From the NCBI RefSeq assembly GCF_024502345.1, contig NZ_JALDNN010000001.1: a stretch of 64,000 nucleotides of DNA; one strand, given 5' to 3'. The position numbers and the translations under genes are program-made. The notes under the pieces were generated by a model. That model saw only the letters and a list, made by a program, of their open reading frames with translations, was not told the origin of the DNA and did not search any database. The stretch comes from Escherichia coli. Its GTDB lineage: Bacteria > Pseudomonadota > Gammaproteobacteria > Enterobacterales > Enterobacteriaceae. Shown here one piece after another: positions 1,661-38,872 of the stretch (position 1 is the stretch's first letter; each line of letters starts with the position of its first letter).

Positions 1661-2142
1661 TTTTTATTTCTCTTTCAGGTGAATAGATCGTTTTTACTAT
1701 TTTACCCCGCACGAATCATCGTTAAAATCAGATTATAGTGTAGGAATAACTCGTTTTTTACGAGCAATTAAAGGATTTGCGCCATCAGCGGTGAGATGAG
1801 TTTTTGACGGCTGTAAGCGCTAACGGGTGACCCTAAGCCCTGATAATCATAGCTTAAGGTCAGGATTTCTGAGGGATTAATTAGGAAAAGTAATAATTAA
1901 TTTCTTGTCAGTCGGCGTTATTTGTTAGGACAATATTTCAAAAATAATCCAGCTTGTCGTCAATAATTGCGATAAAGAGATAAATTAAAGTTAAATAATT
2001 AAATCATTAAAAAATTACGCCACAAAAATGCGAGGCGTCTTCAGGATTAGAATCGATAAAACAGAATGGGTTAAAGAGAGCGATATAATAGCGGCGGGTG
2101 CTTGAGGCTATCTGTCTCAGGCATTAGCTGAACGGCAGATAG

Positions 2143-2420: not shown

Positions 2421-3759
2421 CATAAGCGCTAACTTAAGGGTTGTGGTATTACGCCTGATATGATTTAACGTGCCGATGAATTACTCTCACGATAACTGGT
2501 CAGCAATTCTGGCCCATATTGGTAAGCCCGAAGAACTGGATACTTCGGCACGTAATGCCGGGGCTCTAACCCGCCGCCGCGAAATTCGTGATGCTGCAAC
2601 TCTGCTACGTCTGGGGCTGGCTTACGGCCCCGGGGGGATGTCATTACGTGAAGTCACTGCATGGGCTCAGCTCCATGACGTTGCAACATTATCTGACGTG
2701 GCTCTCCTGAAGCGGCTGCGGAATGCCGCCGACTGGTTTGGCATACTTGCCGCACAAACACTTGCTGTGCGCGCCGCAGTTACGGGTTGTACAAGCGGAA
2801 AGAGATTGCGTCTTGTCGATGGAACAGCAATCAGTGCGCCCGGGGGCGGCAGCGCTGAATGGCGACTACATATGGGATATGATCCTCATACCTGTCAGTT
2901 CACTGATTTTGAGCTAACCGACAGCAGAGACGCTGAACGGCTGGACCGATTTGCGCAAACGGCAGACGAGATACGCATTGCTGACCGGGGATTCGGTTCG
3001 CGTCCCGAATGTATCCGCTCACTTGCTTTTGGAGAAGCTGATTATATCGTCCGGGTTCACTGGCGAGGATTGCGCTGGTTAACTGCAGAAGGAATGCGCT
3101 TTGACATGATGGGTTTTCTGCGCGGGCTGGATTGCGGTAAGAACGGTGAAACCACTGTAATGATAGGCAATTCAGGTAATAAAAAAGCCGGAGCTCCCTT
3201 TCCGGCACGTCTCATTGCCGTATCACTTCCTCCCGAAAAAGCATTAATCAGTAAAACCCGACTGCTCAGCGAGAATCGTCGAAAAGGACGAGTAGTTCAG
3301 GCGGAAACGCTGGAAGCAGCGGGCCATGTGCTATTGCTAACATCATTACCGGAAGATGAATATTCAGCAGAGCAAGTGGCTGATTGTTACCGTCTGCGAT
3401 GGCAAATTGAACTGGCTTTTAAGCGGCTCAAAAGTTTGCTGCACCTGGATGCTTTGCGTGCAAAGGAACCTGAACTCGCGAAAGCGTGGATATTTGCTAA
3501 TCTACTCGCCGCATTTTTAATTGACGACATAATCCAGCCATCGCTGGATTTCCCCCCCAGAAGTGCCGGATCCGAAAAGAAGAACTAACTCGTTGTGGAG
3601 AATAACAAAAATGGTCATCTGGAGCTTACAGGTGGCCATTCGTGGGACAGTATCCCTGACAGCCTACAAAACGCAATTGAAGAACGCGAGGCATCGTCTT
3701 AACGAGGCACCGAGGCGTCGCATTCTTCAGATGGTTCAACCCTTAAGTTAGCGCTTATG
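2421..3759 (+). mobile_element. IS186 insertion sequence
   Basis: Perfect 23-bp terminal inverted repeats cataagcgctaacttaagggttg at 2421-2443 and 3737-3759; flanked by 10-bp direct repeat ggagtgatcc at 2411-2420 and 3760-3769. Confidence 0.9.
2470..3588 (+). CDS. insL: IS186 transposase InsL
   Basis: 372-aa ORF inside the IS186 inverted repeats. Confidence 0.9.
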   Translation: MPMNYSHDNWSAILAHIGKPEELDTSARNAGALTRRREIRDAATLLRLGLAYGPGGMSLREVTAWAQLHDVATLSDVALLKRLRNAADWFGILAAQTLAVRAAVTGCTSGKRLRLVDGTAISAPGGGSAEWRLHMGYDPHTCQFTDFELTDSRDAERLDRFAQTADEIRIADRGFGSRPECIRSLAFGEADYIVRVHWRGLRWLTAEGMRFDMMGFLRGLDCGKNGETTVMIGNSGNKKAGAPFPARLIAVSLPPEKALISKTRLLSENRRKGRVVQAETLEAAGHVLLLTSLPEDEYSAEQVADCYRLRWQIELAFKRLKSLLHLDALRAKEPELAKAWIFANLLAAFLIDDIIQPSLDFPPRSAGSEKKN

Positions 3760-14108: not shown

Positions 14109-14128
14109 ATTGAGATAATGAATAGATG

Positions 14129-36680: not shown

Positions 36681-37697
36681 ATGTCCACATTACGCCTGCT
36701 CATCTCTGACTCTTACGACCCGTGGTTTAACCTGGCGGTGGAAGAGTGTATTTTTCGCCAAATGCCCGCCACGCAGCGCGTTCTGTTTCTCTGGCGCAAT
36801 GCCGACACGGTAGTAATTGGTCGCGCGCAGAACCCGTGGAAAGAGTGTAATACCCGGCGGATGGAAGAAGATAACGTCCGCCTGGCGCGGCGCAGTAGCG
36901 GTGGCGGCGCGGTGTTCCACGATCTCGGCAATACCTGCTTTACCTTTATGGCTGGCAAGCCGGAGTACGATAAAACCATCTCCACGTCGATTGTGCTCAA
37001 TGCGCTGAACGCGCTCGGCGTCAGCGCCGAAGCGTCCGGACGTAACGATCTGGTGGTGAAAACCGCCGAAGGCGACCGCAAAGTCTCAGGATCGGCCTAT
37101 CGCGAAACCAAAGATCGTGGCTTCCACCACGGCACCTTGCTGCTCAATGCCGACCTTAGCCGCCTGGCAAACTATCTCAACCCAGATAAAAAGAAACTGG
37201 CGGCGAAAGGCATTACCTCAGTGCATTCCCGCGTGACCAACCTCACCGAGCTGCTGCCGGGGATCACCCATGAGCAGGTTTGCGAGGCCATAACCGAGGC
37301 CTTTTTCGCCCATTATGGCGAGCGCGTGGAAGCGGAAATCATCTCCCCGGACAAAACGCCAGACTTGCCAAACTTCGCCGAAACCTTTGCCCGCCAGAGT
37401 AGCTGGGAGTGGAACTTCGGTCAGGCTCCGGCATTCTCGCATCTGCTGGATGAACGCTTTAGCTGGGGCGGCGTGGAACTGCATTTCGACGTTGAAAAAG
37501 GCCATATCACCCGCGCCCAGGTGTTTACCGACAGCCTCAACCCCGCGCCGCTGGAAGGCCTCGCCGGGCGACTGCAAGGCTGCCTGTACCGCGCGGATAT
37601 GCTGCAACAAGAGTGCGAAGCGCTGTTGGTTGACTTCCCGGACCAGGAAAAAGAGCTACGGGAGTTGTCGACGTGGATAGCGGGGGCGGTAAGGTAA
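36681..37697 (+). CDS. lplA: Lipoate-protein ligase A
   Basis: 338-aa [55 protein letters not shown]... Confidence 0.96.
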
Positions 37698-37728
37698 CTC
37701 GCTGATTAAAATACCAAAGGAAGGGAAT

Positions 37729-37992
37729 ATGATCGATCTGGAAAACCAAGAGCGGGAGATTATCAATTTAATGTTAAGCCAGCGTATTTCCTGGCTAGCC
37801 GCCGTGCGTATCAGGCATAAATTATCGCTTGCTGAAGTAAGTAAAATGTTAGGTATCTCGATTAATTCTCTAAAATAGATCGAAAAGACGGAACGGTTTA
37901 GCTCAAACATCAAAAGCAAAATGGCAGAAATTTATGGTTGTCCACCAGAGTTGCTGATATGCCCTTCCTGGATGACGGCTGAACATAAATGA
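37729..37992 (+). pseudogene. Small XRE-type HTH gene interrupted by an in-frame TAG codon (37876-37878)
   Basis: Strong RBS aaaggaagggaatATG; MIDLENQEREIINLMLSQRISWLAAVRIRHKLSLAEVSKMLGISINSLK*IEKTERFSSNIKSKMAEIYGCPPELL...; occupies the slot where K-12 has yjjJ/hipH. Confidence 0.5.
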
Positions 37993-38090
37993 ATAGATTC
38001 GTGAATAGATACTTGAATGTATTTTATTTTCTATCCATATGAAAAATAATAGTAAATCTATAAATCAGTTGCTATTGATGAATAGATACT
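37988..38090. repeat. Three copies of the motif TGAATAGATAC
   Basis: atgaatagatt, gtgaatagatac and gatgaatagatac within about 100 bp. Confidence 0.6.
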
Positions 38091-38120
38091 AAAAAGCCGG
38101 AGCAGTCTCCCGCTCCGGCT
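38091..38120 (-). terminator. Rho-independent terminator downstream of deoD
   Basis: gccggagcagtctcccgctccggc hairpin with a T run on the minus strand. Confidence 0.75.
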
Positions 38121-38152
38121 TAACACAACAATCGTCTTTCAGCGAAACACAA

Positions 38153-38872
38153 TTACTCTTTATCGCCCAGCAGAACGGATTCCAGTGCGATTTTGATCAT
38201 GTCGTTGAAGGTGGTCTGACGCTCAGCGGCAGTGGTTTGCTCGTGAGTGCGGATGTGGTCAGACACGGTGCAGATGGTCAGGGCTTTCGCGCCAAACTCT
38301 GCAGCCACGCCGTAGATACCAGCCGCTTCCATTTCCACGCCGAGAATGCCGTATTTTTCCATCACGTCGAACATTTCGCCGTCCGGAGAGTAGAACAGGT
38401 CAGCGGAGAACAGGTTACCCACGCGAGCATCAACGCCCAGTGCTTTAGCCGCGTCTACCGCGTTACGCACCATGTCAAAGTCAGCGATAGCGGCAAAGTC
38501 ATGATCTTTAAAACGGATGCGGTTAACTTTGGAATCGGTGCAGGCACCCATACCGATAACGACGTCGCGCAGTTTTACGTGCGGCAGAACTGCGCCACAG
38601 GAACCCACGCGGATAATTTTCTTCACGCCGAAATCGGTGATCAGTTCTTTGGTGTAGATGGAGCAGGACGGGATACCCATACCGTGACCCATTACGGAAA
38701 TTTTGCGGCCTTTGTAAGTACCGGTGAAGCCCAGCATACCGCGAACGTTGTTCACTTCACGGGCATCTTCAAGGAAAGTTTCAGCAATATACTTCGCACG
38801 CAGCGGGTCGCCTGGCATCAAAACTACGTCAGCGAAATCGCCCATTTCTGCATTAATGTGTGGGGTAGCCAT
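38153..38872 (-). CDS. deoD: Purine nucleoside phosphorylase DeoD
   Basis: 239-aa [51 protein letters not shown]... Confidence 0.97.

Follow-up and report, generated by a model that had tools for sequence, protein, structure and literature searches.

HipB operators are palindromes of the form TATCC-N8-GGATA that are bound by an Xre-type dimer. The winged-helix repressors of the ArsR/SmtB and MarR families (NolR, BigR, and CzrA) bind inverted repeats as dimers, and the tor boxes recognized by TorR (CTGTTCATAT) are four short direct repeats around the promoter, in part tandem and in part separated. The CreB site reads TTCAC-N6-TTCAC, with a period of 11. Directly repeated half-sites, lying at or downstream of the promoter, form the operators of the C repressors of P2-family phages (PMC1904268). 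In the hipBA module, HipB2HipA2 binds its operators through the helix-turn-helix (HTH) domains of HipB and autoregulates (PMC8262856). HipH (YjjJ), a Ser/Thr kinase toxin of the HipA family, carries a winged-helix domain fused at its N-terminus. Its HTH ‘may function to bind DNA’, and its operon is monocistronic, without an antitoxin (PMC8262856); the HTH is required for toxicity, HipH is a c-di-GMP-binding protein found at the nucleoid, and the induction of its gene by that nucleotide ‘occurs at the promoter region’ (PMC11452175). Neither an operator of yjjJ/hipH nor the motif string described below is defined in the searchable literature. From comparison of sequences, we propose that a group of short repeats next to deoD in an Escherichia coli genome is a cis-regulatory box array of hipH, here orphaned, with HipH as its putative binder and autorepressor, a reading to which we assign a probability of roughly 0.7.

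The DNA analyzed, a stretch of 64 kb (the window), carries lplA (36681–37697, plus strand), a small ORF on the same strand (37729–37878), and then deoD, deoB, and deoA on the minus strand. The small ORF reaches 87 codons (37729–37992) if the in-frame TAG at 37876–37878 is read through, and its product matches Pfam HTH_3 (E = 8.5e-7); it is a pseudogene of a small Xre-type HTH gene. The repeats start directly at its end, in agreement with the first-pass annotation, the TGA stop codon providing the first three plus-strand bases of the first repeat. On the far side, and again as that annotation had placed it, lies the intrinsic terminator of deoD (38094–38121, minus strand; inverted repeat I9), a hairpin with a 12-bp stem, eight G-C pairs, and a T-tail that abuts the last repeat. 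A minus-strand ATG at 37984–37986 (CAT on the plus strand) is identified by alignment with K-12 as the vestigial start codon of hipH/yjjJ, and forms the right-hand boundary of a replaced segment.

The array comprises three tandem boxes and one distal box, all on the minus strand, with the 9-bp ATCTATTCA as the minus-strand core of the repeat. Counting from the vestigial ATG, box 1 (37990–37998) reads ATCTATTCA at −12, a position that it also holds in K-12, E. albertii, Salmonella, and others; box 2 (38002–38010) reads GTATCTATTCA at −24; and box 3 (38014–38022) is a degenerate ATACATTCA at −36 (TGAATGTAT on the plus strand), in which the ATTCA core is kept and the ATCT part is altered at two bases (CT to AC). 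The ATTCA core is thus present on the minus strand in the boxes at 37990, 38002, and 38014, giving at least two cores at an exact 12-bp period, and Tandem Repeats Finder reports a 12-bp period over 37990–38018. The distal box (38079–38087) reads GTATCTATTCA at −101, its start lying 65 bp upstream of that of box 3. It is separated from box 3 by a 56-nt spacer (38023–38078, minus strand) that is unrelated to the K-12 spacer and has no convincing −35. Inverted pairing involves a box in one case only, the weak I8 (83% over 12 nt). The repeats had been noticed as three identical copies, of which those at 38002–38012 and 38079–38089 are indeed exact copies of TGAATAGATAC in a search of the window; the remaining one begins at 37990 rather than 37989, and its sequence over 37990–38000, TGAATAGATTC, has one mismatch to TGAATAGATAC.

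The exact core ATCTATTCA occurs five times in the window, against 0.385 expected from 200 first-order Markov simulations, and three of these five copies fall in the array. In composition-matched simulations the maximum was two same-strand matches (≤1 mismatch) within 110 bp, and three were never reached; under an AT-rich null applied to the full 64 kb, 19 of 200 runs yielded clusters of at least three; the AT-rich DNA actually present spans only about 400 bp. The two isolated exact cores lie at 1680–1688 (minus strand), 21 nt 5′ of the nhaA GTG start codon, and at 14119–14127 (minus strand), between the thrC stop codon and its terminator. With about 0.4 copies expected in the window, these two extra cores could be chance occurrences in AT-rich intergenic DNA or weak HipH sites.

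Set beside the systems described above, the array shares with hipBA the presence of several (four) operator copies in the promoter of a HipA-family kinase module, and the expectation that the module's own helix-turn-helix would bind them. Unlike the HipB palindromes, the hipH boxes are 12-bp direct repeats with one distal copy, and binding is presumed to fall to a winged helix that is part of the kinase itself, there being no separate antitoxin gene. We rejected a HipB-type operator: nothing in the array matches the consensus TATCC-N8-GGATA, and the repeats are direct. The likeness to the P2 C operators, compared by description only, lies in direct repeats at or downstream of the promoter, but there are two repeats there against the three-plus-one array here, and the protein fold and sequence are unrelated. 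The head-to-tail boxes also differ from the inverted repeats bound by ArsR/SmtB and MarR proteins, with which sequence identity is only 16–25%; a Pfam search with HipH returned MarR_2 alone, below threshold (E = 0.044). The tor boxes come close in sequence, CTATTCAT resembling CTGTTCAT at 7 of 8 positions. However, A rather than G occupies the differing position in the great majority of boxes in every species compared, and the boxes accompany hipH in hosts and prophages whether or not tor genes are there. None of the CreB, ArgR, IHF, and TorR sites fits the conserved 9-mer together with the 12-bp period.

A megablast search of 5,426 complete E. coli genomes revealed two alleles of the lplA–deoD gap. 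[quoted passage not shown] The annotation of some genomes, among them that of the near-identical strain UTAK-1, marks the small HTH gene as a pseudogene containing an internal stop. In K-12 derivatives, yjjJ is on the opposite strand to lplA, its start at the deoD side and its stop abutting the lplA stop. The replacement of the hipH coding sequence is exact, running from the start codon of hipH to the stop codon of lplA (37698–37983, 286 bp), and homology to K-12 resumes exactly at the vestigial CAT. There the K-12 sequence reads CAT-TAA-TGAATAGATTCG-TGAATAGATACT-TGAATAGATTTA, then 53 nt, TGAATAGATACT, and the deoD terminator. Both alleles share the boxes and the vestigial CAT without a difference, and no alignment is obtained for the sequence that separates the box groups. 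Since window positions 37984–38160 match the deoD–yjjJ intergenic region of K-12, they represent the yjjJ 5′ region. No match to YjjJ was found by tblastn anywhere in the 64-kb window and, with the hipH gene absent downstream of the boxes, the array is orphaned rather than an active member of its class.

The repeats had also been suggested to be remnants of the event that removed yjjJ. What remains is the surviving yjjJ promoter–operator region, not a deletion scar or a target-site duplication. Scars of a yjjJ-removing rearrangement (a target-site duplication or a junction repeat), or repeats arising by chance in AT-rich DNA, would agree with the exact 12-bp TGAATAGATACT found on both sides of a 65-bp segment in the window, and tandem AT-rich 9-mers proved common in phage DNA generally in permuted controls. 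Nevertheless, the presence of the array in hipH-intact K-12 and E. albertii means that it predates the loss of yjjJ, which already refutes a scar; the cluster was not reproduced in the composition-matched simulations, and its conservation across orders cannot be chance. Together these observations leave this explanation scarcely credible. A target-site duplication by a mobile element was likewise rejected, given the repeats in the yjjJ-intact allele and the lack of plasmid or phage similarity of the 121-bp region. The same region speaks against plasmid or phage iterons, as it matched only mislabelled E. coli chromosomes and noise.

The small HTH gene has a narrow distribution. Its homologues number 78 among 5.8 billion proteins, many of them shortened; all named ones are from Escherichia or Shigella, E. 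marmotae included, and every recovered locus sits between lplA and deoD. The gene is often pseudogenized, through an internal stop, a frameshift, or truncation by IS1, the last as in E. coli MB53, where IS1A cuts off its 5′ end (positions 1–200 of the locus). In the hipH-positive E. coli TB354, IS200C lies between the distal box and deoD (2544–3380 of the locus). Read by eye, the minus strand following the vestigial ATG encodes MFSRHPG..., which is unlike HipH, and we therefore discarded the idea that the small HTH segment is a degraded hipH. A 13-nt inverted repeat with 92% complementarity (AGGAAGGGAATAT at 37718–37730 and ATATGCCCTTCCT at 37957–37969) brackets most of the small HTH ORF, one arm covering its ribosome-binding site and start codon; it could represent an mRNA structure or the ends of an inserted cassette.

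We compared the 5′ regions of hipH orthologues with 48–95% identity from E. albertii, a 69% relative, Klebsiella sp. RIT-PI-d, C. freundii, Salmonella, Kosakonia, Pluralibacter, Cedecea, Erwinia, and Pantoea, making, with K-12, 11 hipH-positive Enterobacterales, and called boxes in gene orientation with at most two mismatches to ATCTATTCA. A search of genome contigs with the YjjJ protein alone gave E. albertii only. The boxes are located at −101, −36, −24, and −12 (plus or minus 2) from the hipH ATG, and all four are oriented toward hipH. In most of these species, three tandem (AT)CTATTCA boxes with a 12-bp period end 2–4 nt before the start codon, and the fourth lies 65 bp further upstream. 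Between species (55 pairs), the 36 box positions are 91.8% identical, whereas the spacer, fixed in length at 55–57 nt, is 58.5% identical, equal to the shuffled baseline of 56.8%. Box 2 and the distal box are exact ATCTATTCA in 11 of 11 hipH-positive species, and the box logo is [A/T][G/A][T/A]-ATCTATTCA-[T/A/C]. The window, measured from its vestigial ATG and with its 56-nt spacer, has the same geometry as K-12 and E. albertii, and the 77-bp spacing of the repeat is also found in these two yjjJ-bearing genomes. In Pantoea, the four boxes are all shifted by exactly 12 bp with their internal geometry kept, and a HAD hydrolase gene, not deoD, lies upstream; that the boxes are nevertheless present indicates that they travel with hipH and not with deoD. 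As judged from these alignments, the pattern of conservation is a textbook phylogenetic footprint.

The spacer of hipH-positive genomes contains −35 and −10-like hexamers when the alignment is read by eye. A strict scan found no sigma-70 promoter at the K-12 or Salmonella hipH gene or in the window, but it demands A at position 2 of the −10 element, a base that several of the by-eye candidates (e.g., TTAAAT) do not have. Two further observations concern these genomes: the compared enterobacterial hipH genes have no recognizable Shine–Dalgarno sequence, which puts in question how hipH is translated, and some hipH-positive E. coli bear a mutated distal box (strain 4/1-1).

The same comparison bears on the leading suggestion of the first-pass annotation, namely that the boxes are binding sites for the adjacent HTH regulator. 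The small HTH gene does adjoin the boxes, its stop codon overlapped by box 1, and its product belongs to an Xre-type, HTH_3-matching class. Yet the same boxes in the same geometry are found in 11 species without this gene, which is confined to Escherichia: they are present, among others, in K-12, E. albertii, Salmonella, Citrobacter, Kosakonia, Cedecea, Erwinia, and Pantoea, and in distant metagenomic homologues. Direct repeats 3′ of the gene would be an unusual layout for an Xre-type autoregulator and, where the 87-aa gene is intact, the boxes are still substituted or lack a 12-bp unit; in the window, as in many other strains, that gene has become a pseudogene. We consider it very improbable that the small HTH protein is the cognate factor.

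The association between the boxes and hipH extends well beyond Enterobacterales. Homologues of hipH on viral or prophage contigs, with 33–39% identity and GC contents of 0.45–0.65, have two to three tandem boxes just 5′ of the ATG, for example TTCTATTCAtatATCTATTCAgtaATTTATTCA in a contig of 65% GC. A metagenome scan with the HipH alignment confirmed at least 563 loci, of which the best 80 were analyzed (78 unique, GC 0.44–0.71). Within 130 nt upstream of the gene, on the coding strand, 72 of these 78 hipH-family loci show ATTCA cores spaced at exactly 12 bp in two or more copies, 42 of them in three or more. By comparison, the criterion of two or more cores picked out 2 of 2,298 control windows drawn from these loci, and 1 of 78 when the upstream region was read on its other strand. 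Two individual loci deserve mention. In one (L116, 1150–1260), the hipH-like gene seems to be frameshifted near the HTH and three intact boxes lie upstream; in the other (L119, 1000–1200), the recognition helix is divergent (SQPVMSR) and, in place of a tandem array, there are only two separated CTATTCT-type sites.

We rejected the idea of a widespread phage DNA-binding motif. Matches to ATCTATTCA-N3-ATCTATTCA in viral contigs numbered 89, against 104 and 46 for two permuted controls, the second of which is imperfect in that it partly overlaps the real motif in some loci; the motif is therefore no more frequent in viral contigs than its permuted controls. The genes beside the viral matches are unrelated (a conserved 144-aa protein, a 127-aa protein, and a 137-aa protein, among others), and only those matches that lie beside hipH homologues are meaningful. 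In addition, low-GC viral contigs (L041, L048, L054, L055, L085, L086, and L090) contain long minisatellite-like ATCTATTCATTT arrays with a 12-bp unit and at least 4–6 copies, which are unrelated to hipH and were treated as background.

HipH itself offers a candidate DNA-binding surface. Its winged helix is confidently modelled, and the recognition helix within it hardly varies. Among homologues with identities as low as 34%, residues L8, L18, L22, S25, S30, R31, Y50, L52, and G71 are invariant, and G11, P12, Q26, T28, G43, and R46 are at least 90% conserved; S25, S30, and R31 of the former group and Q26 and T28 of the latter belong to the recognition helix. Variation in this helix partly follows that of the boxes. 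SQPTxTR helices occur in seven of the eight loci with TAATTCA-type (TA-type) boxes, and SQ[PA]SLSR helices are accompanied by all-CCATTCA boxes in three of three loci, with counts that stem from few lineages and carry no phylogenetic correction. Some loci depart from this pattern: one (L295) combines TA-type boxes with an SR helix, and three (L342, L323, and L284) combine CC-type boxes with T28. We take this covariation, read from aligned sequences, as a hint that HipH may be the binder, supportive but not decisive. Sequence searches of the PDB with full-length HipH or its N-terminal domain returned nothing relevant.

The boxes might instead be operators for a separate, trans-encoded factor that controls hipH, such as one responsible for c-di-GMP induction, with HipH not binding them at all. 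c-di-GMP regulation of hipH maps to the promoter region with no factor named (PMC11452175), and both the co-occurrence of the boxes with hipH and their drift after its loss (see below) would fit such a factor equally well. It would, however, have to be conserved or co-transferred with a monocistronic gene among homologues of 33–65% identity, across GC contents of 0.44–0.71 and on prophage and viral contigs, whereas HipH carries its own winged helix, whose near-invariant recognition helix has variants that track those of the boxes. We regard a separate factor as unlikely, although it is the alternative that we take most seriously.

In many of the metagenomic loci, a TAnnAT hexamer (e.g., TATAAT or TAGAAT) directly precedes the first box, which would place the array between the −10 element and the start codon. 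An array so placed, often ending 2–5 nt before the ATG, might act as RNA: AUUCA would then be repeated in the hipH 5′ UTR and would govern how the transcript is translated or how stable it is. No obvious ribosome-binding site separates the last box from the AUG in enterobacteria. Against this stands the enterobacterial distal box, which sits at a constant distance of 65 bp, farther upstream than the inferred −35, and is conserved as strongly as the proximal boxes. The winged helix of HipH is of a DNA-binding type, and Rfam contains no known RNA at the array, the sole match being a sub-threshold eukaryotic snoRNA (E = 0.21) elsewhere in the searched stretch. An RNA element is thus an improbable alternative to operator DNA.

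In strains that carry the HTH allele, the boxes behave as relics. Among 17 such sequences, the boxes have 4 variable columns of 36 and three deletions of a 12-bp unit, and the spacer has 4 of 56 and one indel. Box 3 is the intact TGAATAGAT, TGAATGGAT, or TGAATGTAT, the last being the form in the window; E. marmotae-like sequences have changes in box 2 and, in one case, in the distal box as well. The orphan boxes appear to drift about as fast as their flanks, the reverse of the situation in hipH-positive species, a pattern that fits neutral drift. Boxes 1 and 2 and the distal box are nonetheless intact in the window and in many HTH-allele genomes, and the orphan boxes could still have some residual function. 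A perfect 72-nt proximal array was found in 1742 genomes, which implies that the loss of hipH is recent in many lineages or is tolerated. One strain, A21 (NZ_CP028754.1; positions 391–560 of the locus), has a hybrid allele in which the small HTH gene is followed by a spacer of the K-12/hipH type and a TGAATAAAT distal box, pointing to recombination, with the crossover apparently within the tandem boxes.

In the arrangement that we favor, in which HipH binds the array and represses its own gene, the promoter −10 would lie immediately 5′ of the tandem boxes, and the boxes would cover about +1 to +40. The HipH winged helix, with its recognition helix SQ(A/P)TxSR, would bind the boxes head-to-tail, the distal box providing for cooperative or looped binding, and bound HipH would repress its own monocistronic operon. 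The array would then be the functional counterpart of the HipB operators in hipBA, and in the window the boxes would be left with no binder encoded at the locus. A broader generalization is more tentative, and we think it somewhat doubtful in its full form: that HipH-family kinases across Proteobacteria autoregulate in this head-to-tail manner through 12-bp-periodic (CT)ATTCA boxes between the −10 and the start codon, that the enterobacterial distal box acts cooperatively, and that c-di-GMP-bound HipH leaves the DNA.

As far as we searched, neither the family-wide 12-bp ATTCA signature nor its likely role in HipH autoregulation is described in the searchable literature. The box array provides a sequence signature for annotating hipH-family promoters. 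An odd repeat in the window is explained as a regulatory fossil, and a common two-allele polymorphism, hipH versus a small HTH gene, is documented at the E. coli deoD–lplA locus. HipH is a toxin kinase linked to biofilm persistence that has no antitoxin gene, and the conserved boxes make its autoregulation, and a c-di-GMP switch, testable. If the broader generalization holds, the array would be the promoter element by which c-di-GMP induces hipH, an element that survives without the gene in about 75% of E. coli.
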